27,916 bases of DNA from Candidatus Nanohalobium sp. (GTDB lineage Archaea > Nanohalarchaeota > Nanosalinia > Nanosalinales > Nanosalinaceae): assembly GCA_042216335.1 (NCBI GenBank), contig JBDGTY010000014.1, positions 1 to 27,916 of the forward strand, read 5' to 3'. The notes beneath the pieces are model-generated. The model saw only the letters and a program-made list of their open reading frames with translations, ran no database searches and was not told the DNA's origin. Shown piece after piece: positions 4,969 to 22,373 of the stretch. How positions within the stretch are numbered: position 1 is the first letter of the stretch; every line of letters starts with the position of its first letter. The translations under genes were made by a program, and so were the position numbers.

Positions 4969-5940
4969 ATGGCAAAGAAGAATAGATCGAGAAGCGGATC
5001 ACTGGCATACAAGCCCAAGGTAAGGGCTGAAAGAATCTACCCAGACGTAAGTACGTGGGAAGATACAGACGAGCAAAAACCATTAGGATACGCAGGATAC
5101 AAGGTCGGAATGACCAGAGTCCTCAGAATAGATGATACAGAAGGAGCAACACAGGGACAGGAGATTGCCACACCTGTGACGATCCTCGAAGCTCCTCCAC
5201 TAAGAGTTTACGGGGCACGCTTCTACGTAGAAGACATCAACTCCGGAAAACAGGTCTTCACAGAGGCATGGACAGAAAGTCCTTCAAAGGAACTTCAGAG
5301 AGCAACAGACATTCCAAAGGAAGGAAACATGGACAACCTGGAGAAAGCAAAGGAAAACTCAGATGAAATAACAGACGTCAAACTACTGGTTCACACTCAG
5401 CCTTCTCGTGCAGGACTTTCGAAGAAGAAGCCTGCCAACTTCGAAATTGGGTTAGGAGGCTCAGTTGAAGAACAGCTTGAATATGCAGAAGAGATGATCG
5501 GAAAAGAGATCGAGTTCTCCGACGTATTCGAGGAAGGAGAATACAGCGACGTTATCGGCGTCACGAAAGGAAAGGGAATGGAAGGACCAGTCCAGAGATA
5601 CGGGATCAAGAAGCTGGACCACAAGACACAGAAAAAACGTAGGAAGGCAGGAAACGTCGGTCCATGGCACCCAGACCAGCTTTCATGGAGAATCCCGCTT
5701 CCAGGACAACAAGGTTACAATAACAGGACGGAGGAGAACAAGAGAATCCTCGCACATGGAGAAGACCCAGAGGAAGTTCAGAGAGATGGAGGTTTCAAGA
5801 ACTATGGAGAAGTCCAGAGCAACTACATCCTAGTCAAAGGATCAGTACCAGGGCCAGCAGAAAGACTTGTCCGACTCAGAACAGCACTCAGAACAGACGA
5901 AAACCCGGGAACACCAGAAATCACCCACATCGAAAAATAA
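4969..5940 (+). CDS. rpl3: 50S ribosomal protein uL3
   Basis: RSGSLAYKPKVRA, GYAGYKVGMT, GVTKGKGMEGPVQRYG, GPWHP, KGSVPGP. ATG at 4969 follows AGGAG. Confidence 0.98.
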   Translation: MAKKNRSRSGSLAYKPKVRAERIYPDVSTWEDTDEQKPLGYAGYKVGMTRVLRIDDTEGATQGQEIATPVTILEAPPLRVYGARFYVEDINSGKQVFTEAWTESPSKELQRATDIPKEGNMDNLEKAKENSDEITDVKLLVHTQPSRAGLSKKKPANFEIGLGGSVEEQLEYAEEMIGKEIEFSDVFEEGEYSDVIGVTKGKGMEGPVQRYGIKKLDHKTQKKRRKAGNVGPWHPDQLSWRIPLPGQQGYNNRTEENKRILAHGEDPEEVQRDGGFKNYGEVQSNYILVKGSVPGPAERLVRLRTALRTDENPGTPEITHIEK

Positions 5941-5955
5941 GAGGTGTAAACGATA

Positions 5956-6714
5956 ATGACAGACTTACCAAACCAGTTCAACGAGAGGATCAGGCCTGAC
6001 ATCATCAAGAGAGCCAACCTCTCGATCAAGAGTAAGAAAAGACAGGACTACGGATCAGACCCGGAAGCAGGTCTCAGACACGTAGTATACTGGAAGAAAA
6101 AACAGAATGCATACAGAGGACAGAAAGGAAAAGGCATGTCTCGTACCCCGAGGAAGATTCGTGTCAGACGAGGAAGCCAGATCTACGGAGACGGCGCAGA
6201 AGCACCGAACACCGTAGGCGGACGCACAGCTCATCCTCCAAAGGCAGAGAAGGACTTTGACGAAGAGATCAACGACAAGGAAAGAAGAAAGGCGATCAGG
6301 TCAGCGATCGCAGCAACATCAGACCAAAGCCTTGTCTCAGAGAAGCATAATTACGAAGGAGACCTTCCGATTGTAGAAGATGGAATCTCCGGAATCGAGA
6401 AAACACAGGAACTCAAGGAAACACTCGAAGACCTTGGACTAGAAGACGAACTCGAGAGAGTCTCCGAGAAAAAGGTCAGAGGAGGCAAAGGAGCCAACAG
6501 AGGAAGGAAATACGTCAGAAAGGTCGGCCCTCTGGTAGTAACCGCAGAAGACGAAGGAATCAGTCAGGCAGCAAGCAACCTGCCGGGAGTAGATTACTCC
6601 AGGGTGGATCAGCTTAACGCCGAGAAACTTGCTCCGGGAGCAGAACCAGGAAGACTGGTTGTATGGAGCACAAAAGCAGTAGAAAAACTTGACGAAGACG
6701 GAATGTACCAATAG
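5956..6714 (+). CDS. rpl4: 50S ribosomal protein uL4
   Basis: IRPDIIKRA, GGRTAHPPK, AIRSAIAAT, LAPGAEPGRL; SD GAGGTG; position after uL3. Confidence 0.97.
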   Translation: MTDLPNQFNERIRPDIIKRANLSIKSKKRQDYGSDPEAGLRHVVYWKKKQNAYRGQKGKGMSRTPRKIRVRRGSQIYGDGAEAPNTVGGRTAHPPKAEKDFDEEINDKERRKAIRSAIAATSDQSLVSEKHNYEGDLPIVEDGISGIEKTQELKETLEDLGLEDELERVSEKKVRGGKGANRGRKYVRKVGPLVVTAEDEGISQAASNLPGVDYSRVDQLNAEKLAPGAEPGRLVVWSTKAVEKLDEDGMYQ

Positions 6715-6726
6715 AGGAGATAATAT

Positions 6727-6996
6727 ATGGAAGTTGATAGAGCATGGGAGGTTATCGAAAATCCACACATGACAGAGCAGGCAATGGACATGATCGACGA
6801 GGAGAACAAACTGGTTCTCATGGTCGACCTGGAAGCAGACAAAGGCCAGGTAGAGGACGCGGTCGAAACTCTGTTCGATGTGGATGTCGAGAAGGTCAAT
6901 ACTAACATCACGTCTTCAGCAAAGAAAAAAGCATACGTAAGGCTAAGTCCAAGCGACAGCGCGATGGACGTCGCGACTGAAATGGGCATGATGTAA
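6727..6996 (+). CDS. rpl23: 50S ribosomal protein uL23
   Basis: PHMTEQAM...ENKLV...VEKVNT...KKAYVRL; synteny. Confidence 0.96.
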   Translation: MEVDRAWEVIENPHMTEQAMDMIDEENKLVLMVDLEADKGQVEDAVETLFDVDVEKVNTNITSSAKKKAYVRLSPSDSAMDVATEMGMM

Positions 6997-7008
6997 GGTG
7001 AACAACAG

Positions 7009-7710
7009 ATGGGAAGCCCACTAAGACAGCAGAGAAGAGGAAAAGGAAGTCCGAAGTTCCAGGCCAACAGGAAAGGCAAGGGAACAGCGGAGCACAAGAA
7101 CGACGAAATCACGGGAACGGTCGTGGATGTAGTCCACGACCCGGCAAGGACAGCACCAGTCGCCAAAGTAGAGTTTGAAGACGGTGAAGTCAGAAACGTT
7201 CTTGCGCCTGAAGGACTTCAGACAGGAGACGAAATTGAAGTAGGTGTCTCAGCGCCTGTAGAGCCAGGAAACGTACTGCCTCTTGGGGAGATCCCGGAAG
7301 GAGTACCGATCAACAACATCGAGATCCAGCCGAACGATGGTGGAAAGATGGTAAAGGCATCAGGAACATACGCTTTCGTCGTAACGCAGGAGCAGGATGG
7401 AGTAAGGATCCAGCTTCCTAGCGGCGACTTCAAGAAACTAGATACTGAATGCAGAGCAACTATCGGAAAGGTTGCAGCCGGCGGAAGAAAGGACAAACCG
7501 TTTGTCAAGGCCGGAAACGCATCCAAGGCTGCAAAGGCTCGTGGAAAACAGTACCCAACTGTCTCCGCAGTAGCCATGAACGCAGTCGACCACCCATTCG
7601 GTGGATCAGCAAAACCAGGACAGCCAAAGACAGTTTCCAAGCACGCTTCCCCAGGAAGCAAAGTTGGAAACATCGGAGCCAAACGCTCCGGCAAGAAGAA
7701 CAACGACTAG
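7009..7710 (+). CDS. rpl2: 50S ribosomal protein uL2
   Basis: QRRGKGS, HDPARTAP, CRATIG, AMNAVDHPFGG. Confidence 0.98.
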   Translation: MGSPLRQQRRGKGSPKFQANRKGKGTAEHKNDEITGTVVDVVHDPARTAPVAKVEFEDGEVRNVLAPEGLQTGDEIEVGVSAPVEPGNVLPLGEIPEGVPINNIEIQPNDGGKMVKASGTYAFVVTQEQDGVRIQLPSGDFKKLDTECRATIGKVAAGGRKDKPFVKAGNASKAAKARGKQYPTVSAVAMNAVDHPFGGSAKPGQPKTVSKHASPGSKVGNIGAKRSGKKNND

Positions 7711-7719
7711 GTGTATATA

Positions 7720-8067
7720 ATGGGAATTGAGGGAAAAAAACATGAAGCAGAAGTATGGGCCAGAGAGATCGTCAGAGACATCAATGAACAGCTCTCGGAC
7801 TCATGGATAGCTGAACTGCCTGCATCTCATGGTATTTTCGGTGAAATTTTTCCATACAAAGTAGCAGATAGTTATGCTGATTTGCCAGAAGAAAAAAGGC
7901 AAAACTTTGAAAGATCACTTGCAGAATACGTCGAAGAGTTTGAGGGAGCAGACCAGGGCTCTATAGCCCGTGATTTAGTGACTGGAGCTATAAACCAACA
8001 CAATTACAAAAACCCATATTTAGCTAAGAAAGCAGCAGAGGGAATCGCTGAAGGTGTAATGCAATAA
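7720..8067 (+). CDS. Hypothetical protein inserted between uL2 and uS19
   Basis: The ORF fills the gap exactly, has an SD AGGTG overlapping the uL2 stop and a TAATG overlap with uS19. Composition is acidic and no family motif was recognised. Confidence 0.8.
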   Translation: MGIEGKKHEAEVWAREIVRDINEQLSDSWIAELPASHGIFGEIFPYKVADSYADLPEEKRQNFERSLAEYVEEFEGADQGSIARDLVTGAINQHNYKNPYLAKKAAEGIAEGVMQ

Positions 8068-8444
8068 TGACAGATGACTTTACTTACAGAGGAAAAACAC
8101 TCGAAGAACTCCAGGATCTGAGCCACGACGAGCTCGCAGAGCTCATGGACGCAAGAGCAAGAAGGAAACTGGAGAGAGGTCTTCGAGAAAACGAGGAAAA
8201 ACTACTGGAAAAACTGGAAGACAAAGACAGAGTACAGACACACCTGAGAGGAATGATCGTTCTTCCAGAGATGGTAGGAAAGACGATCGAAATCTACAAC
8301 GGACAGGGATTCGAGGAAGTCGATATCGAGGAAGAGATGATCGGACACTACCTAGGAGAATTCGCCAAAACCAGGAAAGAAGTATCACACAGCGCACCAG
8401 GACTCGGCGCTACAAGATCTTCAAAGCACGTACCGCTCAAGTGA
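8067..8444 (+). CDS. rps19: 30S ribosomal protein uS19
   Basis: FTYRGKTLEEL, THLRGMIVLPEMVG, MIGHYLGEFA, GATRSSKHVPLK. Confidence 0.98.
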   Translation: MTDDFTYRGKTLEELQDLSHDELAELMDARARRKLERGLRENEEKLLEKLEDKDRVQTHLRGMIVLPEMVGKTIEIYNGQGFEEVDIEEEMIGHYLGEFAKTRKEVSHSAPGLGATRSSKHVPLK

Positions 8445-8451
8445 TGCCTAA

Positions 8452-8874
8452 GTGAACAAGATCGACACCGAAGCACACCAGGCCCGAGCACTCGGCAAGA
8501 ACATGCCGATCTCCTGGAAAGACTCCACAGAAATAGGTCGCTTCATCAGCGGTGACACAGTAGAAAAGGCAGAGAGGAAACTAGAGAAAGTGATCGAGAA
8601 AGAAGTTCCTGTTCCTTACACAAAGTTCGACAGCGACGCAGGACACAAATCCGGTGCAGGGGACTCAGGAAAATACCCTGTCAAAGCAGCAAAACACATG
8701 CTTGAACTAGTACAGGAGGCAGCCCACAACGCAGAACACCAGGGCCTCAACCCGGGATCACTGCACGTGGAGAACGTTGTCACCAACAAGGGCAACGAGT
8801 ACGCAACTCCCGGGAGATTCAGAGGAGAGAAAACCAAGGCAGCACACGTCAACGTAATCGTAGGTGAGAAGTGA
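8452..8874 (+). CDS. rpl22: 50S ribosomal protein uL22
   Basis: PISWKDSTEI, GKYPVKAA, NAEHQGL; GTG start; synteny. Confidence 0.96.
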   Translation: MNKIDTEAHQARALGKNMPISWKDSTEIGRFISGDTVEKAERKLEKVIEKEVPVPYTKFDSDAGHKSGAGDSGKYPVKAAKHMLELVQEAAHNAEHQGLNPGSLHVENVVTNKGNEYATPGRFRGEKTKAAHVNVIVGEK

Positions 8875-8930
8875 TGACCGAAGATCAGAGATCTTCTACG
8901 ATGATTTACACGCAAGGTGAAAATCAATAA
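8874..8930 (+). other. Intercistronic element: hairpin plus an 18-codon mini-ORF (MTEDQRSSTMIYTQGENQ)
   Basis: ATG at 8874 overlaps the uL22 stop (TGATG) and has SD AGGTGA at 8862-8867. TAA at 8928-8930 overlaps the uS3 ATG. Hairpin GAAGATC-AGA-GATCTTC at 8880-8896. Confidence 0.5.
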
Positions 8931-10084
8931 TGCAGGAGAAACAATTTATCGAGAAAGGAGCAAGAAAAGTAAGGCTTGACGAATTCCTATCAGACGAGCT
9001 TGAGGGAGCAGGATACAGTCATGCAGAAATCGAGAGAACACCGACAAGCACAAAGATAGTAGTACACGCACAGAAGCCAGGACTCGTCATCGGAAGAGGC
9101 GGAAGCAGAATCCGCGAACTAACCGAAGACATGGAAGAAGAGTTCGACTTCGAGAACCCTCAGATCGAGGTAAACGAGATCGAGAACCCGGATGCCGATG
9201 CAAAGGTTGTAGCGAAGAGCATCGCGGACTGGCTGGAAAAAGGCGGGCACGCCAAGAGAGTAGGATACACCTACCTCAGAAGGATGAAAGAGGCAGGAGT
9301 AATCGGAGCAGAACTGGAGATCACAGGAAAGCTCTCCGGAAACCGTGGAAGAACGGAGAAGTTCTCCTACGGGTACGTCAAGAGATGTGGAAACACCTCT
9401 AAGGCCAACGTTCAGAAAGGATATGAACTGGCAAGGACCAAGCCAGGAGCCATCGGCGTCAAGGTCAGGATCATGAAAGACCTGCCGGACTTCCTGCACA
9501 GGGACGTAGACGTCAGTGAAGAGATCCTCCACGAAGTACAGCAGGATGAAGAAGCAAGAGAGAAATCCACAAGAATTGAAGAAGTCGTCAGGGAAGCAGA
9601 GAACATGACCTCGGCAGAACTCGAGAGAGCAATCGAGGAAAAGGCTGAAGAAGTCAAGACAGATGACATCTCCAAGGAAGAAATCAGGGAAGCATTTGAC
9701 TCGGCCGACGCAGTAGAAGAACTGGAAGAAAAGGCTGAAGAAGTCGAGGAAGAGGCCGAAGAGATCATCGAAGAAGAATCTGGCGAAGAACAGGAAGAAG
9801 ATGCAGAAGCCACAAAGGAAGAGGCCGAGGAAGTCGAGGAAGAGGCCGAAGAACTCGCTGAAGAAACCGAAAATGAAGAAGTAGAAGAGGCTGCTGAAGA
9901 AGTTGCCGAAGAGATGGAAGAAGTTGAAGAAGACCTTGAAGAAATCGTCTCAGGCACGATCAGCGACGCCAAGGAAGCAATCAACGACATGAGCGAACCA
10001 GACTTCGACGCACTGCTTCAGGCAGAGAAAAGCAGCAAAGACCGCAAAACCTTCAAAGAATGGCTGGAACGCCAGAAGGATTAA
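8930..10084 (+). CDS. rps3: 30S ribosomal protein uS3 with a long acidic C-terminal extension
   Basis: KPGLVIGRGG KH motif, GAELEITGKL, KPGAIGVKVRIM; about 200 extra residues follow. Confidence 0.97.
   Translation: MQEKQFIEKGARKVRLDEFLSDELEGAGYSHAEIERTPTSTKIVVHAQKPGLVIGRGGSRIRELTEDMEEEFDFENPQIEVNEIENPDADAKVVAKSIADWLEKGGHAKRVGYTYLRRMKEAGVIGAELEITGKLSGNRGRTEKFSYGYVKRCGNTSKANVQKGYELARTKPGAIGVKVRIMKDLPDFLHRDVDVSEEILHEVQQDEEAREKSTRIEEVVREAENMTSAELERAIEEKAEEVKTDDISKEEIREAFDSADAVEELEEKAEEVEEEAEEIIEEESGEEQEEDAEATKEEAEEVEEEAEELAEETENEEVEEAAEEVAEEMEEVEEDLEEIVSGTISDAKEAINDMSEPDFDALLQAEKSSKDRKTFKEWLERQKD
9635..9950 (+). repeat. Degenerate 90-nt (30-aa) tandem repeat in the uS3 tail
   Basis: GAAAAGGCTGAAGAAGTC occurs at 9638 and 9728; GAAGTCGAGGAAGAGGCCGAAGA occurs at 9740 and 9830. 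EExEEV recurs every 30 aa, four times. Confidence 0.75.
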
Positions 10085-10108
10085 AAGAACTGAGAGGTGT
10101 ACATAACC

Positions 10109-10297
10109 GTGAAAGCAGAAGAAATCAGAGAAAAGGACACGTCCGAACTGAAGGAACAGCTCGGCGACCTGCAGAAAGAACTTGTACAGGAACGCGGCCA
10201 GATAGAGGTCGGTGGATTCGCCGACAACCCTGGCGAAATCAAGGAGATGAAGAAAACCGTCGCAAGAATCAAAACAGTTCTCAACGAACGCAACTAG
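10109..10297 (+). CDS. rpl29: 50S ribosomal protein uL29
   Basis: KAEEIRE...NPGEIKEMKKTVARIKTVLNE. GTG at 10109 follows SD GAGGTG at 10094-10099. Confidence 0.95.
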   Translation: MKAEEIREKDTSELKEQLGDLQKELVQERGQIEVGGFADNPGEIKEMKKTVARIKTVLNERN

Positions 10298-10303
10298 ATA
10301 ATA

Positions 10304-10609
10304 ATGAGTGAAACATGCCCAAAGTGCGGAATGCCACAGGATCTTTGCGTCTGCGACAGCATCGCACGTGAAGACCAGCAAATCACAGTCAAACTCGACT
10401 CAAGAAGCTACAACAAAGAGATGACCGTTGTCACAGGTCTCGACGACGAAAGCGACATCAAAGACCTGGAATCAACGCTCAAGACCAAACTCGCCTGCGG
10501 AGGCACACACAAAGACGACCAGATAGAACTTCAGGGCGACCACAGAAGAAGAATCGTCGACATCCTAGAAGACGAAGGATTCAGCCGGGAAAACATCGAA
10601 GTCAAATAG
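10304..10609 (+). CDS. Translation initiation factor aIF1/SUI1
   Basis: CPKCGMPQDLCVC, LKTKLACGGT, IELQGDHR; usual position after uL29 in archaea. Confidence 0.96.
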   Translation: MSETCPKCGMPQDLCVCDSIAREDQQITVKLDSRSYNKEMTVVTGLDDESDIKDLESTLKTKLACGGTHKDDQIELQGDHRRRIVDILEDEGFSRENIEVK

Positions 10610-10655: not shown

Positions 10656-12104
10656 CTAAGCTGGAGGTTCTGCACCAGGAGCTAACCATTCATCATAAAC
10701 GTCGCTATTTATGATTGCTTCAAATATATCTGCCCTTTTGCATCTTCTAGGATATCCTATTTGAAGCCTCATATCTTCCTCATACTCTTCAATAGCTTCT
10801 TTTAATTGTGAATTGAGTTCTCGGTTTTCTAAGCCTGAGTAAGACTTTGAACTGCTAATCAGTGTATCGATAGATTTATCGACTATTGCGTCTTCTCTAA
10901 GATCAATGCGATCTCTGCCAATTATTTCTCCATTTCCATCTTTTACATAAATTATTGGTGATGTCAGGCTTGCACTTCTTCTAATTGCTCCTGAGTTTCT
11001 AGTATTGTAGTCTTCTTCCCATGTAATTGAGTGACAAGTATCAAATTCATCGCCATATCTCAATCCTTCAATAGGAGAAGCAACATATATCTCGAACTCA
11101 CGACCGCCTATTTCAGCAACCTCTTTACCTAATCCGTTCTTCAAAACTTCTAGTTCTGAGTATTCTAAGCTACTTATTTGATCGTATGATGGACTTGACT
11201 CTCTGAAATAAGACTCTTCTCCATACTTGATAATGTCTTCTAAAATTTCCAAATCTTCGAATCTTTGAGTCATTATATGTGCTCTAACAGCATATAATTC
11301 ATCCTTATCCAGTTCATCTGGTTCTTCACCTGTAATGTTTCTGTAGTGTTTCTTGGCAATTTGTTGTGCCTGTGATTCCAAGGCATCTAGAGTCTTACTT
11401 CGTCTTTGAGTTTCTACTTCAGACTCCAGTCTTCTCCTCAATTCATCTGTATCTATTTCGTCCTGCCAGTTTGGATTCTCCTGCTTCTCTTTCAACCAGT
11501 TAAATGTGTCAAACATTCCTAGATCAGCTCTATAACCACTTATCTCGGCAAGACCAGCAATTTCGGAAATATCTTCTTCAAGCTTTTCATACGCCTGTTC
11601 GGCCGCTTCTCGATACTTCCCACTGAACTCTTCACCTATTTGTTCTTCAATAACGTCGGACTCAGCTTCTAAAATCTCATCTATTTCATTTGCTGCATTC
11701 TCGGCTATTATATCGGCCTCAGGGGTTTCTAGAAAGTTCCAGACATCATGTCCCAAAGAAAAATCCTCTCCAGAAACCCTAAGATTATCCGCAATTTCCG
11801 ATATACTCTCTGAACCATAGTTTTTTCTGTATTTTTCTACTGTCATCAATCGAGAGTCGCTTACTTCTCTTCTACTTCCTTCCTCCTTGAAAGCATCAAA
11901 CTTATCTCTAAAGTCAATGGTCTCCTGAACGGTTAACCCAAAAACATCAGCGACAGCTTCCTCAAACTCAGTAGGACTGAAACGCCCAGTTACTTCAAAG
12001 CCATCTCTAATGACCGAGATACTATTCTCTTTAAAAACTAACTCCATGTCCTCGTCCAGTGACTGTTCTCGAATAAAAGACTCAACAAATTCTGTTGTCA
12101 CCAT
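10656..12104 (-). CDS. Hypothetical acidic protein, 482 aa
   Basis: Long, AT-rich ORF with a TATA-like TATATAAA (minus strand, 12126-12133) 22-29 nt upstream of the ATG. The C-terminal YGDEFDTCHS...IIYVKDGNGEIIGR segment looks like a conserved domain. Confidence 0.85.
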   Translation of the reverse strand: MVTTEFVESFIREQSLDEDMELVFKENSISVIRDGFEVTGRFSPTEFEEAVADVFGLTVQETIDFRDKFDAFKEEGSRREVSDSRLMTVEKYRKNYGSESISEIADNLRVSGEDFSLGHDVWNFLETPEADIIAENAANEIDEILEAESDVIEEQIGEEFSGKYREAAEQAYEKLEEDISEIAGLAEISGYRADLGMFDTFNWLKEKQENPNWQDEIDTDELRRRLESEVETQRRSKTLDALESQAQQIAKKHYRNITGEEPDELDKDELYAVRAHIMTQRFEDLEILEDIIKYGEESYFRESSPSYDQISSLEYSELEVLKNGLGKEVAEIGGREFEIYVASPIEGLRYGDEFDTCHSITWEEDYNTRNSGAIRRSASLTSPIIYVKDGNGEIIGRDRIDLREDAIVDKSIDTLISSSKSYSGLENRELNSQLKEAIEEYEEDMRLQIGYPRRCKRADIFEAIINSDVYDEWLAPGAEPPA

Positions 12105-12236
12105 ATAGTAACATTCTCATCATTCTTTATATATTTAACTAATATCATCCTAGAATACGATAAGAGTAATAACCTTCTATCACCAGACAGACTGAAACAG
12201 GTCAAAAACAGAAAAAACATTAAATCGGGCCTGAAA

Positions 12237-13360
12237 ATGAATTCTCAGTTTCAACTCAAACTTAAGTCACAGGAAACAGGGAAGATCTACACATTTCACT
12301 CGGCCGACGGACTCAATTCGAAAGGCAGTTTCAGGGATGAAGAACTTCTTCTGGCCGATGAAGTAGATATTAAAGAGGATGATAGGGTCCTAGTAGTTCA
12401 GTCAAACTATGGGTTTCTCGGTGTAGTTCTGGGGATAAAGCAGAGGAAATAACGATGTTCGACACTTCTGCAAGAGCCTGCAACTATTCCAGGAAGAACG
12501 CTGAAGAAAATGGCCTGGAGAACTATTCTGTAGAGAATCCACCAGAACTATCTGAAATAGAGGGAGTTTTCGACAAGATTGTCTATGCACCTGCTGACTA
12601 CGAACCGGTCGACCTAGTGAAGAATCGCCTCGCAGATGCAATGAGAAAGCTTGATGAGGAAGGAGAGCTTTACATCGCAGGTAGGAAGAAGTCAGGGCTG
12701 AAAAGATACCGCAAGTATCTAAATAAGTACGGAGAAGTTAAGAAACTGGCCAGAGACGGCTCGACACAGGCCTACTCGTTCCGGAGGAGTGGCCATGTAA
12801 CCATGTCAGGACCAAATCTGGAGAAAAACTTTGAAGCTGAAGTAGATGGTTTAAAGGCAAGTTTCAGGACTTCCAAGGGCCTTTTCTCGGCAGGAAAGCT
12901 CGATGGAGGAACAAGACTTTTACTGGAAAACCTGGATGTTTCCGATTCTGAGAAAGTTCTGGACCTTGCGTGCGGCTACGGTGCGATTTCCGTTTTCCTG
13001 GGAAAGATTTACGACTGTGATCTCTACCTGGCGGATGACGATGTCAGAGCAGTAAAATACGCCCGGAAGAATCTGAAGCTGAATTATATAGAGGATTTTG
13101 AAGTGAAAGCTGCTGACTGCCTGGATGGCTTTGGAGATCAGAAATTCGACTTGGTTGTTTCGAATCCACCGACTCATCAGGGTAGCGGTGTAACCGACAA
13201 GATGTTCAGACAGGTTCACGATTCCCTGTTTGAGGGCGGAGAGTTCTGGCTTGTCTACAACCAGAACATGGGATTCGAGGATCAACTATCTGAGATGTTT
13301 GATCTGGTGGAAGTCGTGGATGAAGGAGATAATTTCCTGGTTGTCAGAACTGTAAAATAG
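12237..13360 (+). pseudogene. RsmC-like two-domain SAM methyltransferase split by a 1-nt frameshift (12237-12452 plus 12455-13360)
   Basis: C-terminal GLFSAGKLDGGTRLL, VLDLACGYGAI, DLVVSNPP. Adding one G to GGGG at 12431-12434 gives a continuous ...NYGFLGVVLGDKAEEITMFDTSARA. Confidence 0.8.
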
Positions 13361-13361
13361 G

Positions 13362-13685
13362 TTATCTATTCCTTTCGTGTTTTCGTGCAAACTCTTCCCA
13401 GTTATCCACTATCTTCCGATACGCTGACCAGTAATCCAGATGTTCAAGAGGTACTTTGTCGTCTTTGAATGGATGTTCCTGGAACTTGAGGTCGATGTGG
13501 ACGAATCCGTGGGCGGTATCCAGAGTCACTACTTCCTCGTTTTCCTCTGTCTCAGGATTCCTGCAGACGAGTGTTATACAGAAGTCATCTGAGTTTTCAA
13601 CGTCTTCAAGTTTGTAGTCTGGCCTGTAGACTACCTCATATGATTTTCCTTTGAATTGTCCCAGAGATAGAGAGTCGCTGGTCAT
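13362..13685 (-). CDS. Small acidic protein with a D-x-x-H-G-x-x-H motif (TumE/DUF6516-like, tentative)
   Basis: EVVTLDTAHGFVHID; SD GAGGT upstream on the minus strand; adjacent to an HVO_A0114-like HTH gene. Confidence 0.6.
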   Translation of the reverse strand: MTSDSLSLGQFKGKSYEVVYRPDYKLEDVENSDDFCITLVCRNPETEENEEVVTLDTAHGFVHIDLKFQEHPFKDDKVPLEHLDYWSAYRKIVDNWEEFARKHERNR

Positions 13686-13793
13686 CTAGTTTACCTCTCT
13701 ACGTGTTGTTTCTAATACATCATTGATAAAGTGTTGAGGTCCGAGGCCATCACCTATTTAAGTTTTCAACAACAATACTGGTTTAGAGGTCTA

Positions 13794-14159
13794 ATGGAGT
13801 CTACTACTCTCAAGTCGGGTGAAATGGCTGTTGAAGAGTCGAAGTCTTACGTTGATGAAGACACACTTGACTTTGTCAAAGAGGTCATTGAGAACAACAA
13901 GGACGTAAGCACGCACGTAGTGCCAGCTGAACTTGCTAGGGAGATAATGACGGAGAAAAGAATAGAGATAATAGAAACTATCAGAGAAGAGGAAATAGAA
14001 TCCAAGAGAGACCTGGCCAGAAAACTTGACAGAGACATCAAGTCAGTCTCCCGAGACCTAGACGTACTATGGAAATATGGGATAGTGGACTACAGGGAGG
14101 AAGGAAACCGGAAGATACCGGAGATCACAGCCGACAAAATAATAATAGAACCTCTGTAA
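13794..14159 (+). CDS. Winged-helix DNA-binding protein (HVO_A0114-like)
   Basis: MTEKRIEIIETI...ESKRDLARKLDRDIKSVSRDLDVLWKYGIV...GNRKIP. TATTTAAG at 13755-13762 and GAGGT precede the ATG at 13794; 13824 is an alternative start. Confidence 0.8.
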   Translation: MESTTLKSGEMAVEESKSYVDEDTLDFVKEVIENNKDVSTHVVPAELAREIMTEKRIEIIETIREEEIESKRDLARKLDRDIKSVSRDLDVLWKYGIVDYREEGNRKIPEITADKIIIEPL

Positions 14160-14168
14160 AAACAACGT

Positions 14169-14696
14169 ATGCCAGGATCAAAGTTTCTAGAAGGTGACAA
14201 AGTTAACCTAAGGACTATCGAAGAAGAGGATGCAGAGTTTCTGAGAGACGGCGTTAATCATCCAGAAGTAAGAGTCTGGATGGGGAATACCAGGCCTCAG
14301 AACTTGGAGGATGAGAAAGGGTTTATCGATGAAGTTGTGTCTTCTGATAGTTCAATAAATCTGATGATATGTAGAGAGGGTTATCCGAAGGGCATTATCT
14401 CCTTGACTGATCAGGAAGATGAAGGAAAGATTGGGGAATTAGGTATCTGGCTTCACCCCGAGTTTCATGGAAATGGTTTTGGCACGGAGGCGGCATGGAT
14501 GCTGACAGATCATGCTTTCAAGCAATTGAACTATCACAAAGTTTATGCTCGGGCGCAAAAGCAGAATCAGCCCTCTATAGGAGTCTGGGAAAAACTGGGA
14601 TTCCAGAAGGAGGGAGAGTTCAGAGACCATACCTATGCACAGGGAGAGTACCAGGATGTGGTTTATCTGGGAATGATTCAGGGTGATTGGGAATGA
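14169..14696 (+). CDS. GNAT acetyltransferase, RimJ/RimL family (copy 1)
   Basis: LRTIEEEDAEFL, ELGIWLHPEFHGNGFGTEA, NQPSIGVWEKLGFQKEG. Confidence 0.93.
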   Translation: MPGSKFLEGDKVNLRTIEEEDAEFLRDGVNHPEVRVWMGNTRPQNLEDEKGFIDEVVSSDSSINLMICREGYPKGIISLTDQEDEGKIGELGIWLHPEFHGNGFGTEAAWMLTDHAFKQLNYHKVYARAQKQNQPSIGVWEKLGFQKEGEFRDHTYAQGEYQDVVYLGMIQGDWE

Positions 14697-15223
14697 AATC
14701 CAAGTTCCTGGAGAAAGGCAATGTGGTTCTCAGGCCCATAGAGAAAGACGATGCGGAGTTTCTAAGGGAATTCATCAAACATCGAGATGTAAGGGATACT
14801 ATAGGAAAACCTCCGAGACCTGTGAATCTGAAACAGGAGGAAGAATTTATCGAGGCTACTTCAGAAGACGATGATGCAGTCAAGTTCCTGATAGAGTACA
14901 AAGATGAGAGAGCCGGCGAAATATCGCTCAATGAATTGGAGAAACCGTACAGAAAAGGAGAGTTAGGTATAAGCATCCACCCGGATTTCCACGGTCAGGG
15001 TATCGGTTCAACCGCAGTCCAGTTAGTTACTAGGTATGCGTTCGAGACACTGAACAGGCACAAAGTCCGTGGAGGATACTTAGAAGGAAACGAGGCCTCG
15101 AAGAGGATAATGGAGAAAGCTGGGATGCAGCAAGAAGGCCGTGACCGCCACTACAAGTACGTAGATGGAGAATGGAAAGATGTCATCTGGATGAGCATAC
15201 TGGAGGAAGAATATTTTGAATGA
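14693..15223 (+). CDS. GNAT acetyltransferase, RimJ/RimL family (copy 2)
   Basis: LRPIEKDDAEFL, ELGISIHPDFHGQGIGSTA, NEASKRIMEKAGMQQEG; ATGA overlap with copy 1. Confidence 0.93.
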   Translation: MKSKFLEKGNVVLRPIEKDDAEFLREFIKHRDVRDTIGKPPRPVNLKQEEEFIEATSEDDDAVKFLIEYKDERAGEISLNELEKPYRKGELGISIHPDFHGQGIGSTAVQLVTRYAFETLNRHKVRGGYLEGNEASKRIMEKAGMQQEGRDRHYKYVDGEWKDVIWMSILEEEYFE

Positions 15224-16199
15224 AGAACTCAGAGAATCATTGGAATCAGAACTAGGCCAGGAGTTCGACTGGCAGGAACTGGAGAAGGGCCTCAACACTA
15301 TCTACCTGCTCTCATCCGAGGGTGAGGAGTACGTCCTGAAGGTTCATACTAATCCGAAGAACAAGGTTCCGTGGTTTAGGGCCGAGCCCAGGATCTACGA
15401 GAAGGTAAGTGATGAGACGGATATTCCTTCGCCGGAGATTGTCTACAAAGATTTGAGCGGTGAGTCGTATCGGGACTTGTTCTATGTGATGGAGAAGCTG
15501 GACGGGGAGAACCCGCAAAACATCAGAGGAGAACTGGGGCAGGAAGAGCTTGAGGAGGTAATCCATCGGTTTGGCAGGATACTCGGTGAGGTCCACAAGG
15601 TACAGATCACCGACGAGTACGGGATAATTGGTTATAGCGGCGGTGTCTTTGGACCTCCTGACTCTGCAGAACAGTGGAACTGGGCATTGGAGGGGTCGAT
15701 GTCTTCCTGGAAGGAGATAACGGAGGATGAATGGGGCGACCCTCCGGAGATAGAGTTCGATTCCGGAAAGGTGAAGGAAAGACTTCCTGAAAAGCCGGAA
15801 TCTGTTCTACTGCATTCGGATAACAGGCTCGACAACCTTCTTGTTGACGGAGATAATATCACAGGCTTTCTTGACTGGAGCCATCCATGGTCCGGACACA
15901 GGATCTACGACCTGGTAAAGACCGAGTACCTCCTCATAGGAAGGGATCTGGGAGAATGGGACAGAGACCTGGATCTGGAGAAGTTGAAGGAGGAGTTCTA
16001 CTCGGCTTACAGGGATGAAACAGGATTTGAGAGAGGAGAGGAGTTCGAAGAACTCAGGCAGATCTACAGGTACGCAGTCACCCTGGAGCTTGCGGCAGGG
16101 TTCGCCAACTGGGGCTCAAAACTGGATGAGAAAGAACACGACAGCACAAGAGAAGAGATAATCGATAGGTTGGAAGCAGAAGAGCCAAAAGTGTTGTAA
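15216..16199 (+). CDS. APH-family phosphotransferase (copy 1)
   Basis: YVLKV, DIPSPEI, LLHSDNRLDNLL, GFLDWS, YDL. Confidence 0.92.
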   Translation: MNEELRESLESELGQEFDWQELEKGLNTIYLLSSEGEEYVLKVHTNPKNKVPWFRAEPRIYEKVSDETDIPSPEIVYKDLSGESYRDLFYVMEKLDGENPQNIRGELGQEELEEVIHRFGRILGEVHKVQITDEYGIIGYSGGVFGPPDSAEQWNWALEGSMSSWKEITEDEWGDPPEIEFDSGKVKERLPEKPESVLLHSDNRLDNLLVDGDNITGFLDWSHPWSGHRIYDLVKTEYLLIGRDLGEWDRDLDLEKLKEEFYSAYRDETGFERGEEFEELRQIYRYAVTLELAAGFANWGSKLDEKEHDSTREEIIDRLEAEEPKVL

Positions 16200-16212
16200 T
16201 CTGAATTAGTTT

Positions 16213-17208
16213 ATGGATGAAGCGCTTCGTGAGCATCTGGAGTCCAGGTTAGGTGATTTTGACTGGGTTGAAGTTGAGCAGGGAGTGAACGATGTCTATA
16301 TCCTGAGTTTGGATGACAGGGATCTGGTTCTGAAGGTGCAGTCCGATCTGGCTGTTGATAGAAGTACGGAGGCCGAACCCGAGATCTACAGGATCATAGC
16401 TGATGAAGCTGATGTTCCGTCGCCGGAGATAGTTTACACCGATTTCTCGCGTGAACAGGCGGGTGATGCGTTCTACGTTATGGAGATGATGCATGGTGAG
16501 AAGGCTGAGGAGGCTTGGCCTGAGATGAGTATGAGGGACAGGAAGGAAGTTGTCTGCCAGTACGGCGAGATACTTGGAAAGATACACGACCTGAGGAGCT
16601 TCACCCAGCACGGGCCTCTCCGACTGAAGCAGGGAAAACTCCAAGTCAGAGATGGGAAAAATTCATGGACTAAAGCCCTCGCCTCCTGGTTTAAGGACTG
16701 GAAAGATAACCTGGAGGATTGGAGAAACCCTCCTGAAGTAGAGGTTCCAGAGGAAACGGAACTGAAGGGATTAGTGCCTGAAGACCCGGAACCGGTGCTG
16801 ATACATGAGGATAACAGGCTGGACAACCTGGTGCTTCAGGGATCTGAGATTTCAGGCTTCCTCGATTGGAGCAGCCCCATTTCTGGACCGAGAAAGTATG
16901 ACCTGGCCAGGGCCGGATACCTGTTAATAGACGGCGACACCACATACGCAGGGAAGGAAATCTTGACGGATAAACAGAAAGACAAGCTCAGAGAAGAACT
17001 CGTCAAGGGCTACAGAAACACTAACTCAATAGACTCTAGCTGGATGGACTCAGAGGAGAGACAAATCTACAGATATGCAGCGATACTGAACATCGCAGCT
17101 GATTTTGAAGAATGGAGCAATCAGATGGAAGAGAAAGATAGACAAAAAGTCAGGAAAGAGCTGATCGATAGATTGAAACAGGAAGAAACTAATTTGAAGG
17201 AAATTTAG
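16213..17208 (+). CDS. APH-family phosphotransferase (copy 2)
   Basis: LVLKV, DVPSPEI, LIHEDNRLDNLV, GFLDWS, YDLA. Confidence 0.92.
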   Translation: MDEALREHLESRLGDFDWVEVEQGVNDVYILSLDDRDLVLKVQSDLAVDRSTEAEPEIYRIIADEADVPSPEIVYTDFSREQAGDAFYVMEMMHGEKAEEAWPEMSMRDRKEVVCQYGEILGKIHDLRSFTQHGPLRLKQGKLQVRDGKNSWTKALASWFKDWKDNLEDWRNPPEVEVPEETELKGLVPEDPEPVLIHEDNRLDNLVLQGSEISGFLDWSSPISGPRKYDLARAGYLLIDGDTTYAGKEILTDKQKDKLREELVKGYRNTNSIDSSWMDSEERQIYRYAAILNIAADFEEWSNQMEEKDRQKVRKELIDRLKQEETNLKEI

Positions 17209-18005
17209 ATTTCCATTCCGTCAAACGCAATGTCTATTTCGAAGCTTGCTTCTTTCTCCAGATCCGAGGCAAATTCCTTTAGCTCTTCATGGTTCATTCC
17301 TCTGTTCTCCTCGATGTGCGTAAAAACCACTCTATCAGGGCCTATCTGTTTCAACTGGCCGAACAATCTGTGGAAATCAGTTATTTCATCGGGTTTTTCG
17401 AACTTCTCCATTTCAAGTCCTCCGAACTCCAGTATGAAGATCTCATGTTCTGAAACCTGTTTTAGGTCAAACTCTGTCAGGTCGCAGGGAGCGTAGAAGA
17501 TCTTTCTCTCATCTTCCAGTGAGTAACCATATGTATTTGACTCTTCTAGAGGTACTGCTTCAATCTTTACTCCATCGAATTTTCTGGATTTGAAATCTTG
17601 TTCCGCTTCCGCTATACCTCTTTCGATGTAGTAGTCCATCATACCTGACATATTCATGTCTCTTAGGTCCTCTAAAACTCCATCAGGAAACAGGACTTCT
17701 ACGGAATCATCGCTTGCATCATAAGAGCCAGCCAGCTGGTTGATCACCATCATGCCCATCGTGTGATCAGGATGGAAATGGGTGTAGAAAATCCTCCTGA
17801 CATCCTTGATTCTCTCTCTGTTCAACTGGAAAGAGATGTCCTGAGAGGTATCAATTAAAGCTTCGATATCTTCAATGTACAGGGCCGGGCCGGTTCTCAT
17901 ATTAGGAGGTGACATCTCCTCTCTAGCTTCCTCACAAACGTCACAGCCGCAGCATGGCTTAGGGATAGGATGAGTCGCGCCTGAGCCAAGGATCTTCAGA
18001 TCCAT
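17205..18005 (-). CDS. MBL-fold metallohydrolase, PhnP-like phosphodiesterase
   Basis: ILGSGA...PKPCCGCDVCEEAR (PhnP-type zinc site), LIDT, THFHPDHTMG (HxHxDH), FTHIEE, AFDGMEI. Confidence 0.9.
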   Translation of the reverse strand: MDLKILGSGATHPIPKPCCGCDVCEEAREEMSPPNMRTGPALYIEDIEALIDTSQDISFQLNRERIKDVRRIFYTHFHPDHTMGMMVINQLAGSYDASDDSVEVLFPDGVLEDLRDMNMSGMMDYYIERGIAEAEQDFKSRKFDGVKIEAVPLEESNTYGYSLEDERKIFYAPCDLTEFDLKQVSEHEIFILEFGGLEMEKFEKPDEITDFHRLFGQLKQIGPDRVVFTHIEENRGMNHEELKEFASDLEKEASFEIDIAFDGMEI

Positions 18006-18057: not shown

Positions 18058-18336
18058 ATGCCACGAACTGCTGAAAACCTTCCGCGCCACGAACTAATCG
18101 GCCTCCATGCAGAGGTCGAAGAACACTCTGACGATAATAAAGAGGATATTTCTGGAGAAGTTCTGGATGAGACCCGTGACATGCTGAGGATCGGAGAAAA
18201 ATGGGTTGAGAAGGAGGGAACTGTCTTCCTGTTTGAATTGGAGGATTCGAAGGTGCGGATCAATGGAGATATCATCCAGAAAAGGCCCGAAGACCGGTTG
18301 AAGATGAAGTTGCCGGGCAAGTGGGAAAGCGTCTAG
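18058..18336 (+). CDS. rnp1: RNase P protein component 1 (Rpp29/Pop4)
   Basis: NLPRHELIGL, GEVLDETRDML, G-x5-RPEDR; normally lies between SUI1 and uS17. Confidence 0.94.
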   Translation: MPRTAENLPRHELIGLHAEVEEHSDDNKEDISGEVLDETRDMLRIGEKWVEKEGTVFLFELEDSKVRINGDIIQKRPEDRLKMKLPGKWESV

Positions 18337-18926
18337 AGTTCAATTATCTTAGAGTCTTGGATGCTTCCATCATAGAACTCATCTGGCTCATATCCAGCGG
18401 ATATCCAGTTAGAAGGATATGAACTCCCAACAGCTCCTTCAACTCCTCTACATCCGTATATAAACTGGCCTGACTCAATTGCTCTATCCTTATCTCTCTT
18501 ATCGCTGTGGAAAGGTTTGTTACTTACATCTTCTATGTTATCTAGGGGTACATCTACCTCTAAGATTATGCTTTTCTCAAGCTTAGGTTCTCCGTATCTT
18601 TCCTTAGTGGCTGTGCCCGCATAACCTGAGGCTGTCTCGAAACTATGTGTTAAATATAGATTGTTTTCGGAAACAATCTCTCCTCCGTTGTTATTCAAGT
18701 GCTCATTCCAATCTTCACGACATGCACCAAAGAAAAGAGATATCGTTTCATCCTCTAAATCAATTCTATTGCCGGCTTTTTCCAAATCATAACCTGATTT
18801 AAGTTCTACTTCGCTCGGTGATTCGGATTTAAGCCAGTCATGCTGATATTCTAATTCCCAGTCAAAAGGCAAATTTTCCACGAGTTCTGCCAGTTCTTCA
18901 TGTCCTTGGTTCTGATCCAGGCTCAC
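18333..18926 (-). CDS. Hypothetical protein, possible degenerate ADP-ribosyltransferase-like fold
   Basis: LFFGA...LYLTHSFETASGYA...IILEVDVP. The GTG at 18926 lies 23-30 nt after TTTATAAA (18949-18956). Confidence 0.65.
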   Translation of the reverse strand: MSLDQNQGHEELAELVENLPFDWELEYQHDWLKSESPSEVELKSGYDLEKAGNRIDLEDETISLFFGACREDWNEHLNNNGGEIVSENNLYLTHSFETASGYAGTATKERYGEPKLEKSIILEVDVPLDNIEDVSNKPFHSDKRDKDRAIESGQFIYGCRGVEGAVGSSYPSNWISAGYEPDEFYDGSIQDSKIIEL

Positions 18927-18981
18927 GTATTTACTTGTTAGTGACAAATTTATAAATATTTCTCTATTCTGGCTCCTTATC

Positions 18982-19017
18982 ACCCTTTTTAAGAGTTGTC
19001 TTCTTTCATTTGTTTAC
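18982..19017 (+). promoter_or_regulatory. Promoter of the uS17-secY transcript (TTTTTAAG at 18986-18993)
   Basis: TATA-like box about 30 nt before the leader hairpin; shares ACCC, TTGTCTT and TTTAC with the uL3 promoter. Confidence 0.7.
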
Positions 19018-19168
19018 GACCTTTGGGTCGTGGTTTTGGATTCCTGCTGAAAGTCGCGTCAAAGCGAAACTGCAGAAAGGAGTCCGGCTTAGGAGGAAAA
19101 CCGCGTTTTTCCGAGAGTCGGGTTTCTGTGGTTGAGGCAGGGATTTATTCCGAGGTGAAACAATAACA
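19016..19168 (+). promoter_or_regulatory. Structured 5' leader of the uS17 operon (candidate r-leader)
   Basis: Stems 19016-19021/19026-19031, 19037-19043/19080-19086, 19044-19047/19072-19075, 19054-19057/19064-19067, 19095-19100/19107-19112, 19122-19128/19138-19144; SD GAGGTGA at 19152-19158. Confidence 0.65.
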
Positions 19169-19441
19169 ATGAGTCAAGAATACGAGGTAAGAGGCGGAAC
19201 GTTCACGGGAACAGTCGTTTCCACGAAGATGCAGAAGTCCGCCACCGTAAGATGGGAGCATACGCAGGAAATTCCAAAATACGAGAGAAAAGAGAGAAGA
19301 AACACCAAGATCTCCGTACACGTCCCCGAAGACATGGAAATAGAAGAGGGCGACACGGTTAAAGTAGGAGAGACACGACCCATCTCAAAAACCAAGAGCC
19401 ACATAGTGATGGAAAAAGTCGAAGACAACGGAGATGAGTAA
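19169..19441 (+). CDS. rps19-like not applicable: 30S ribosomal protein uS17
   Basis: VRGGTFTGTVVSTKMQKS, PKYER, ETRPISKTKS. The gene symbol is rps17. Confidence 0.97.
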   Translation: MSQEYEVRGGTFTGTVVSTKMQKSATVRWEHTQEIPKYERKERRNTKISVHVPEDMEIEEGDTVKVGETRPISKTKSHIVMEKVEDNGDE

Positions 19442-19444
19442 CTT

Positions 19445-19846
19445 ATGAAGCCACTGGGATCCAACATTTCTCGTACGCTTGACATCGGAGCAGAGCTTAC
19501 ATGTGCTGACAACTCCGGAGCAAAGGAACTCAAGATTATCGGAGTCAAGTCCAGGAAAGGAAGAAGAAGCCGAAGAGAAAGCGCAGGAGTCGGCGACATC
19601 GTCAAGGTAAAGATTCTGAGAGGAGACGAGGAAGTCCGACATCAGGTATTCGACGCAGTGATCGTAAGACAGGCCAAGGAATTCCAGAGGCCGAACGGGC
19701 TCAGAGTGAAATTCGAGGACAACGCAGCAGTCCTGATCGAAGAGGAAACCATGCTGCCAAAAGGAAACGTAACAAAAGGACCGATCGCAAAGGAAGTAGT
19801 TCAGAGATTCAGTCCGATCGGGAAAATCGCATCAAAGGTGGTGTAA
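19445..19846 (+). CDS. rpl14: 50S ribosomal protein uL14
   Basis: CADNSGAKEL, AVIVRQ, FEDNAAV, KGPIAKE. Confidence 0.98.
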   Translation: MKPLGSNISRTLDIGAELTCADNSGAKELKIIGVKSRKGRRSRRESAGVGDIVKVKILRGDEEVRHQVFDAVIVRQAKEFQRPNGLRVKFEDNAAVLIEEETMLPKGNVTKGPIAKEVVQRFSPIGKIASKVV

Positions 19847-19849
19847 ATT

Positions 19850-20536
19850 ATGGTAGATAAAACTCAGAACTGGAGCAGGGAATGGAAAGCAAGTGACCAG
19901 CCTCAGAAGCAGAGAAAGTACAGAAGAAATGCTCCACAGCACGTTAAAGACAACATGATTTCAGCAAACCTCTCACACGAACTAAGAGACGAGCTCGATA
20001 CAAGAAATATTCAGCTCAACCTTGGTGACAGGGTCGAAGTGATGAGAGGAGACTTCAAAGGAAGCAGAGGAATCGTCTCGAATATCGACAGGGACAAGCA
20101 GAAAGTATACATCGACGGACTGGAGGCGGAGAAGCAGGATGGAACGACGAGAGAGGTTCCTTTCAAGCCGTCCAACCTGCAGATTCGGGCGCTCAACCTT
20201 GAGAACATCGAGAGGATCGAGAAGTTCGAGGTAGAGGATACCGACGCGATCCAGGTCGACGAGGAAGAAGTTGAGGAAGTCCTTGAGGAAGACGAAGAAA
20301 ACGAGATGATGCAGCAGATGCAGGGCGGCGGCCAGCAACCATCCATGGACGACATGGACATCGACGAGGAAGACATGGAAGAGATCAAGGAAGCAGCAGA
20401 AGAAGCACAAGAATCAGAAGATGAAGATTCCGAAGACGAAGCAGATGAAGAAGTTGAGGAACAAGACGAAACCGAAGCTGAAGAGCTGGAGGAATCTGAA
20501 TCTTCTCAAGAAGACGAAAAGGAGGGAGATAAATGA
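19850..20536 (+). CDS. rpl24: 50S ribosomal protein uL24 with an acidic tail
   Basis: SDQPQKQRKY, GDRVEVMRGDFKG, PSNLQI; about 105-aa acidic extension. Confidence 0.96.
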   Translation: MVDKTQNWSREWKASDQPQKQRKYRRNAPQHVKDNMISANLSHELRDELDTRNIQLNLGDRVEVMRGDFKGSRGIVSNIDRDKQKVYIDGLEAEKQDGTTREVPFKPSNLQIRALNLENIERIEKFEVEDTDAIQVDEEEVEEVLEEDEENEMMQQMQGGGQQPSMDDMDIDEEDMEEIKEAAEEAQESEDEDSEDEADEEVEEQDETEAEELEESESSQEDEKEGDK

Positions 20537-21931: not shown

Positions 21932-21987
21932 GTGAGCCGAAAATGCGAGATTTTCTGACAACGACAACACAAGGTGATGACGAGTGA
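21930..21987 (+). other. Intercistronic element: hairpin plus a 14-codon mini-ORF (MRDFLTTTTQGDDE, 21943-21987)
   Basis: SD AGGTGA at 21930-21935, ATG at 21943, and TGA overlapping the uS8 GTG (GTGA). Hairpin GAAAAT-GCGAG-ATTTTC at 21939-21955. Confidence 0.5.
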
Positions 21988-22373
21988 AACATGATACACT
22001 GAGCGACGCATTGAGCGCGATCAACAACGCGGCTCGAAACGACAAGGATTACGCGACAGTCGAGCCGACCAGCAACCTGCTGAAGAACGTACTGGTCGAG
22101 CTACAGCAGAACGGATACATCGGAGTATTCGAACTGGTTGAAGACGGACAGGGAGGCAAGTTCAAGATCGAGGTAACTGACACGATCAATGAATGCAGAC
22201 CGGTCAAGCCGAACTTCTCCGTCCAGAACGATGAGTTCGACAAATGGGCCAAGAGATACCTCCCGGCGCAGGGATTCGGAGATCTCATCGTCACGACTTC
22301 ACACGGAGTTATGACGCATGAGGAAGCCCGTGAAGAAAACCTAGGAGGAAAATTGCTCGGATACGTCTACTGA
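21984..22373 (+). CDS. rps8: 30S ribosomal protein uS8
   Basis: DTLSDALSAINNA, GYIGVFE, YLPAQGFG, TTSHGVMTH, GGKLLGYVY. Confidence 0.98.
   Translation: MKHDTLSDALSAINNAARNDKDYATVEPTSNLLKNVLVELQQNGYIGVFELVEDGQGGKFKIEVTDTINECRPVKPNFSVQNDEFDKWAKRYLPAQGFGDLIVTTSHGVMTHEEAREENLGGKLLGYVY

Follow-up and report, generated by a model that had tools for sequence, protein, structure and literature searches.

A conserved RNA element heading the uS17-uS8 operon of salt-lake archaea, with a candidate copy of the uS8 site of 16S rRNA

Feedback control of ribosomal protein operons by mRNA structures that mimic rRNA is textbook knowledge for Escherichia coli, and in bacteria uS17 belongs to the S10 operon. 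Here we analyze the leader of an archaeal ribosomal protein operon that begins with uS17 and also encodes uS8, found in a 27,916-nucleotide stretch of DNA from Candidatus Nanohalobium sp. (assembly GCA_042216335.1, contig JBDGTY010000014.1, positions 1 to 27,916 of the forward strand), hereafter the window. The leader (19016-19168) contains a hairpin at 19038-19085 whose core resembles the uS8-binding site in helix 21 of 16S rRNA. All features discussed lie on the + strand unless stated otherwise.

The closest described system is the spc operon of E. coli and other Gammaproteobacteria, in which an mRNA hairpin of the uS8-encoding operon copies the helix 21 core and one surface of uS8 binds both mRNA and rRNA (PMC10931766, PMC4176348). 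As described in PMC4176348, the uS8 recognition core consists of the (G597-C643)-U641 triple, the invariant A642 and the A595-(A596-U644) triple, and the same contacts are made in rRNA, in spc mRNA and in the M. jannaschii complex; we follow the numbering of that study for the core (596-599/639-644). Regulation by uS8 has been described for E. coli and Vibrio, where the operator (the S8-interacting RNA; Fu et al., 2013, PMC3616713) lies where the third cistron begins (rplE, which encodes uL5) and blocks it directly. The sections of a 2024 review that bear on this question describe the phylogenetic spread of ribosomal protein feedback as poorly known and the phylogeny of spc regulation as not advanced (PMC10931766).

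For archaea, only a handful of ribosomal protein leaders have been described or proposed. They comprise uL1 (Methanococcus), uS15 in Halobacteria and Methanomicrobia, and eL15 (Eckert and Weinberg, 2020, PMC7247131); the uL1 leader has been tested, and the uS15 and eL15 motifs, listed among the 20 new leaders of that 2020 survey, are candidates. These leaders, too, are proposed to mimic an rRNA site whose protein is encoded downstream; their ligand and fold differ from those considered here. The terms S17, uS8, rpsH and Nanohaloarchae do not occur in the main text of PMC7247131, and our literature search, which covered main texts, found no archaeal uS8 leader.

Like the spc operator, most leaders with the archaeal element keep equivalents of G597-C643, U641/A642 and A596-U644 (PMC4176348), U641 being replaced by A in the window. 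The two differ in placement, the spc operator overlapping the rplE start and the archaeal element being located ahead of uS17, the first cistron, at a distance of 80-130 nt. The archaeal element, which belongs to another domain of life, has no sequence homology to the spc operator, mostly lacks the A595-type triple that the spc mRNA site keeps (PMC4176348), and has a two-state layout and an additional stem, stem B. It has no match in Rfam release 15, either at gathering scores over the whole window or at E<=10 over 18900-19300; the initial annotation of this region, made from the sequence alone, had taken the leader to be a candidate for an undescribed one. Should uS8 bind this leader, a second domain of life would independently have turned the same uS8-RNA recognition to a regulatory use, from another position within the operon.

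Conservation of the element and of its uS8-like core

We located uS17 in 38 of 41 related genomes. The spacer between Rpp29 and uS17 measures 160-280 nt in the family of the source genome (f1) versus 20-45 nt in families f3 and f4, and the long f1 spacers have in common a CCCTTTT(T)AA(A/G) box, a ..GGAGUCG../..CGAUACUC.. hairpin, a second hairpin with GAAAACC and a conserved UUCU. Across 20 aligned leaders the invariant columns read A-x-U-C-G and C-G-A-x-A-C-U, and RNAalifold returns exactly the core helix, whose 3' strand carries a 2-nt bulge. A model of 22 base pairs is paired in 82.9% of alignment cells, compared with 71.8 +/- 1.3% after shuffling (none of 500 shuffles as high) and 34-48% when the model is slid along the alignment, and 15 of its 22 pairs show double changes.

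The initial annotation had proposed a covariance model of uS17 upstream regions as a check, and such a model (R1) finds the element within f1. Of the 49 other f1 genomes, 31 contain a single match and one contains two (32/49); 20 genomes of the sister families f2-f5 contain none. The whole-genome scan yielded 0 of 3 within the window's own genus, a prefilter artefact that also missed the window's own 30-bit match; searched directly, the window scores 30.2 bits at 19043-19080 (E 5e-6), its sequence being part of the seed. In all 30 fetched loci uS17 follows the R1 match by 130-260 nt. Three f1 loci (L012, L015 and L017) are without the hairpin. In total the element is seen upstream of uS17 in 35 genomes, all from one family of archaea with genomes of about 1 Mb that live in salt lakes. 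It is a conserved, single-copy, family-restricted RNA heading the uS17-uS8 operon.

The source assembly (about 1.02 Mb) has no 16S gene in its 74 contigs. In all of five complete members of the family, helix 21 reads ..AAGUC(C/U)GCUG...CAG(C/U)GGAUACUGCAG.., with the core AAGUC...GAUACU. Lined up with GCGGAUACUGCAG, the proximal 16S segment from a genome of the same genus, the window's GCGAAACUGCAG lacks one G and has A in place of U at 641; the window's AAGUCGC aligns with AAGUCCGC. In the leaders of the 35 genomes, A596, U598, C599, G639, A640, A642, C643 and U644 are present without exception, G597 is found in 30 (C in the other 5) and U641 in 30 (A in 3, G in 1 and C in 1); the exact AGUC/GAUACU combination occurs in 26. 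The pairs A596-U644 and U598-A640 (A19052-U19071 and U19054-A19067 in the window) form in 35/35 leaders, and G597-C643 (G19053-C19070) in 30/35 and in 18 of the 20 sequences of alignment A2. The inexact match of the uS8 core bulge that the initial annotation pointed out holds for the window, with its A for U at 641, and fails for the 26 relatives that carry the exact 16S core.

Judged by sequence, the leader hairpin is a copy of the proximal uS8 core site of helix 21, set between covarying flanks. The AAGUC/GAUACU core and the 2-nt bulge are common to the lineage's 16S helix 21 and the leaders. The leaders mostly have no bulged A595; in their upper helix and apical loop they bear no relation to distal helix 21, and no three-way junction surrounds their hairpin. 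It is uS8 that the core points to; nothing in these sequences points to uS17 or eS4 as the ligand. The claim of the initial annotation that the uS17 leader appears to mimic helix 21 is upheld as to the resemblance, which concerns the proximal uS8 core and not the distal part that had been named.

In the window, the uS8-like hairpin (R1 match, RNAalifold helix, covariation and 16S core match) is built from a closing stem (19038-19044/19079-19085), CUG/CAG pairs (19047-19049/19073-19075), an internal loop formed by A19050 and A19051 opposite G19072, the core pairs 596-644 and 597-643, a bulge of A19068 and A19069 (641 and 642), and an upper stem UCGC/GCGA (19054-19057/19064-19067, starting from the pair 598-640) with the loop GUCAAA. 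The hairpin read in the initial annotation as CCUGC-UGAAAG-UCGC-GUCAAA-GCGA-AACUGCAG is indeed present at 19043-19075, and so is its 7-bp closing stem UGGAUUC/GAGUCCG (19037-19043/19080-19086).

In 20 of the 35 leaders the uS8-like hairpin is extended by an arm of 40-50 nt (for example L018:1247-1317 and L020:1262-1334). This long-form arm ends in a covarying stem with the conserved loop CCUUUUGUC. A regular-expression search of five 16S and two 23S genes gave no counterpart of CCUUUUGUC and a single GAAAACC, in one 16S gene.

Putative promoter, alternative folds and the proposed role of uS8

Our favoured explanation, held with moderate confidence and drawn from sequence comparison, is that 19016-19168 is a uS8-binding autoregulatory leader. 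It would form the 5' leader of a uS17-uL14-uL24-eS4-uL5-uS14-uS8-... transcript started from its own box at 18983-18993. With 16S rRNA saturated, uS8 that is encoded on this transcript and remains free would bind the hairpin at 19038-19085 and feed back on expression of the operon. Two folds may alternate: a first in which the uS8-like hairpin is formed, and a second in which both strands of its lower stem pair with 19123-19133 and 19136-19147; uS8 would tip the balance toward the first. By analogy with bacterial ribosomal protein leaders the effect would be repression, and we infer uS8 binding and a route through translation, decay or early termination. As to the earlier proposal of an undescribed archaeal autoregulatory leader acting by rRNA mimicry, an undescribed leader with helix 21 mimicry is found upstream of uS17, and it would act by binding and autoregulation as set out above.

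The box at 18983-18993 (P1), consisting of CCC plus TTTTTAAG, is promoter-like by its resemblance to the B recognition element (BRE) and TATA box. A CCCTTTT(T)AA(A/G) box of this type lies upstream of the element in 33 of the 35 loci, and P1 resembles the boxes found 30-40 nt upstream of the tRNA genes of the source genome, which look like GGTTTAAAAGATTA or CCCTTTTTAGAAAC. The position of P1 predicts a transcript start near 19016, given the TATA-to-start spacing usual in archaea. P1 and uS8 (21984-22373) are on the same strand, which puts the element, from this predicted start, in the 5' untranslated region (UTR) of a uS8-encoding operon. A Shine-Dalgarno sequence, GAGGUGA (19152-19158), precedes the start codon of uS17 at 19169-19171, and GAGGTGAA is invariant in the genus.

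A second tRNA-promoter-like box, e.g. GGTTTAAAAGATT, occurs 33-57 nt before the uS17 start in 19 of the 35 relatives (L010, L013, L014, L018-L022 and L024 among them). At that distance from the start codon it would leave a very short 5' UTR or none. The source genus has no second box, and for this reason the element must lie in its sole 5' UTR. A run of five or more T (T5+) separates the hairpin from the second box in only 5 of the 19 two-box loci, so that transcripts from P1 probably extend into uS17.

The two boxes invite another reading, in which P1 drives a stand-alone small RNA gene. Its product, an abundant RNA of about 100-170 nt with a uS8 site, would act in trans as a uS8 buffer or decoy or as an assembly factor, and the operon would be transcribed from the second promoter. 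The conservation of P1 and the second box in 19 relatives fit this scenario, as does the frequent T4-T6 run after the GAAAACC motif, and L012 and L015, which have lost the uS8-like hairpin, still show two tandem promoter-like boxes. We nevertheless consider it unlikely, since the source genus lacks the second box, T5+ runs rarely precede that box, the element is attached to uS17 in every one of the 30 match loci, and the complement of the hairpin's 5' strand, described below, sits directly before the Shine-Dalgarno sequence or the second box, suggesting that the transcript goes on.

Folding of the 153-nt leader gives -57.7 kcal/mol, compared with -43.9 +/- 3.9 kcal/mol for 200 dinucleotide shuffles (z -3.5; none of the 200 as good). 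At the predicted 5' end of the RNA, the fold contains a hairpin ACGACC-UUUG-GGUCGU (19016-19031). It is 96% paired with one double change in an alignment of the four genus members; it is not kept in deeper relatives, whose uS8-like hairpin begins about 10-20 nt past the predicted start. Every cell of that alignment is paired (100%) in the closing stem 19037-19043/19080-19086, which shows a single double change, from G-C to A-U, alongside two one-sided ones. The stem at 19084-19090/19115-19121 (stem B), correctly recognized in the initial annotation, is 95% paired with one double change. The fold drawn in that annotation is paired in 94% of cells as a whole; four sequences are too few for significance, and 89 of 500 shuffles reach the observed pairing percentage.

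Stem B encloses GAAAACC (19096-19102) and an inner A/U helix (19095-19101/19105-19111) that includes a T5 run (19106-19110). This run is not conserved even within the genus, and GAAAA of the GAAAA(A)CC motif is invariant in the second hairpin of 20/20 leaders. The 6-mer GAAAAC also occurs in the 16S gene of the three relatives inspected (3/3), about 30 nt before GGGGAGUACG, and is too short for a mimicry call.

The leader looks like a two-state switch, since both strands of the uS8-like stem have complements downstream. The plain minimum free energy (MFE) fold replaces the closing stem by long-range pairs, 19037-19048/19136-19147 and 19068-19078/19123-19133. The segment at 19123-19133, complementary to the 3' strand, forms a duplex of -12.6 kcal/mol (p 0.015 against shuffles in the window). 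Such a 3'-strand complement is found 38-67 nt downstream and reaches p<=0.05 against dinucleotide shuffles in 12 of 34 loci; it is weak in two of the four genus members (p 0.64 and 0.71) and has p 0.10 in the fourth, and a locus's own 3' strand pairs better than the strands of other loci (median rank 0.12). The 5' strand has its complement at 19136-19147, a segment that stops 4 nt short of the Shine-Dalgarno sequence and forms a duplex of -15.0 kcal/mol (p 0.027 in the window). Such 5'-strand complements directly precede the Shine-Dalgarno sequence or the second box and reach p<=0.05 in 12 of 34 loci; in L004, a genome of the same genus, the complement spans 13 bp (p 0.000), and GCAGG within this segment is invariant in the genus. 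The two states are predicted to be nearly isoenergetic, at -54.9 against -56.0 kcal/mol in the window, with means of -66.0 against -68.8 kcal/mol over 16 loci.

We rejected occlusion of the Shine-Dalgarno sequence as the output of the switch, given that two accessibility calculations gave no consistent direction. In the window itself the uS8-type fold is the less accessible, at both the Shine-Dalgarno sequence (0.60 versus 0.79) and the start codon (0.59 versus 0.80).

Evidence against a uS8 leader and the remaining readings

Several results weigh against a uS8-binding autoregulatory leader. Within the core, C597 in 5 of the 35 leaders breaks the G597-C643 pair, and the window and its genus carry A (3) or G (1) instead of U at 641, so that the window reads GAAACU. 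The leaders do not retain the bulged A595, or with it the A595-(A596-U644) triple: position 595 pairs with 645 in 29 of the 35 (G-C in 18, A-U in 11). The window's A19051, lying opposite G19072, might remain unpaired, which brings the window nearer to the rRNA at 595 than most relatives. R1 detects helix 21 in only 2 of the 5 16S genes, and weakly (9.8 bits, E 1.7; 7.3 bits, E 8.5). In the 19 relatives with a second box, that box could give uS17 mRNA without the element. Regarding the switch, genus cells are paired less often in the two long-range helices (82% and 75%) than in the uS8-type fold, four sequences again being too few for significance, and forcing either fold caused no consistent change in accessibility of the Shine-Dalgarno sequence and start codon (7 less and 10 more accessible of 34; 3 less and 4 more of 16). 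Finally, the 35 loci are related to one another, and counts over them overstate their independence.

These results also bear on the possibility that uS8 is no ligand of the element, which would be a conserved, structured leader or RNA whose match to the helix 21 core is a short-motif coincidence. It would then act through another protein or through RNA folding alone, in stability, processing or co-transcriptional folding. The core is only about 10 nt long, and we estimate, without a scan, that a bare AGUC...GANACU hairpin arises by chance tens of times per megabase. The missing A595 bulge, C597 in 5 leaders, A or G at 641 in the source genus and the insignificant cross-matches of R1 to helix 21 agree with such a coincidence, and the GAAAACC loop and the CCUUUUGUC apical loop, without rRNA counterparts by regular expression, indicate further selection at work. 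Against it, the ten core positions are fixed over 35 diverged leaders, apart from the substitutions at 597 and 641 given above, while the flanking pairs covary; the fixed positions are exactly the uS8 core of PMC4176348 and are present in the lineage's 16S; and the element heads an operon that encodes uS8. We regard this possibility as quite improbable.

A more speculative idea, to which we assign a small chance, is that P1 yields a small RNA, discrete and abundant, serving as a dedicated sponge or sensor for free uS8, comparable to the protein-titrating 6S RNA. It would set operon output by way of the tandem promoter, for instance if uS8-dependent read-through starting at P1 occluded the second promoter (P2). 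If so, a uS8 sponge RNA could be the main coupling of ribosomal protein supply to rRNA supply in these host-dependent archaea with genomes of about 1 Mb.

The register of the initial annotation, in which the hairpin imitates distal helix 21 and is read by eS4 or uS17, is most improbable: UGAAA, UCAA and AACUGCA, matched there to an E. coli sequence, follow one another in that order in the window, but the 31 leaders outside the genus conserve not one of them (orthologues read UUGGAG or CUGGAAG, then a variable apical hairpin, at times replaced by one of 40-50 nt, then AUACUC or AUACUU), and the 3' strand of distal helix 21 in the lineage's own 16S has no AACUGCA. The annotation had itself named unconserved UGAAA/AACUG and a differing host helix 21 as grounds for abandoning its proposal, and for the distal register both are what we find.

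We also considered known RNAs and motifs. The element adjoins Rpp29 and contains GAAAGUC, and RNase P RNA was rejected as its identity on the basis of full-length candidates located elsewhere in 5/5 genomes (e.g. G000:C48:1305-1644). These RNase P RNA candidates align full-length at 30-74 bits, compared with an Rfam cut-off of 84, and are divergent; standard annotation would miss them. Signal recognition particle (SRP) RNA and 5S rRNA were rejected likewise, both being located elsewhere in 5/5 genomes, and a K-turn or L7Ae site was discarded because the aligned leaders have no tandem G-A pairs. A 56-aa open reading frame (ORF) at 18996-19166 was rejected as coding, its frame being broken by indels of 1, 2, 4 and 5 nt among the four genus members.

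The natural series of the element (short and long forms, variants at 597 and 641, and leaders with and without the 595 bulge) can be used to ask which parts of the core uS8 needs. R1 is a ready covariance model for annotating these genomes, in which the region is now blank.

The surrounding gene cluster

The DNA sequencing runs that contain the stretch are labelled as salt-lake or hypersaline metagenomes, and the best-matching of them may be the source sample; none of the 22 runs listed for 18900-19900 is an RNA run. From uS17 (19169-19441; Pfam PF00366, E 7e-24) the cluster runs uS17, uL14, uL24, eS4, uL5, uS14, uS8, uL6 and onward, all on the + strand, with genes that overlap or sit a few bases apart; the uL5 start at 21192, for example, overlaps the eS4 stop codon by one base. 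The proposed ligand, uS8 (Pfam PF00410, E 4.5e-23), is the seventh gene of the cluster and lies 2.8 kb downstream of the leader in the window. In five of five complete relatives it is found on the strand of uS17, 2.6-3.0 kb downstream of that gene. The spacer between uS14 and uS8 (21932-21983, 52 nt) is the sole sizeable gap within the cluster and holds a small hairpin, GAAAAUGCGAGAUUUUC, before the uS8 Shine-Dalgarno sequence.

Upstream of the leader, Rpp29 (18058-18336) is followed by a 216-aa ORF on the - strand (18333-18983), which interrupts the usual adjacency of Rpp29 and uS17 and whose start abuts the P1 box. This ORF has no Pfam match and, among 30 related loci searched by tblastn, is found in the source genome only. 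Further upstream, about 7 kb of ORFs (10656-18005) separate Rpp29 from a run of + strand ORFs at 4957-10609; from their translations, we take the former as non-ribosomal and the latter as part of the ribosomal protein cluster.

Two of the encoded proteins have unusual termini. The N-terminus of uS17 is short (MSQEYEVRGG...) in the source genus and the nearest genera (window 19169-19441 and loci L001-L030), and an N-terminal extension with C-x-D-x2-C-P-F-H-G is retained in deeper members of the family and in the sister families. The uL24 protein (19850-20536) ends in a very acidic, D/E-rich C-terminal tail of about 100 aa.
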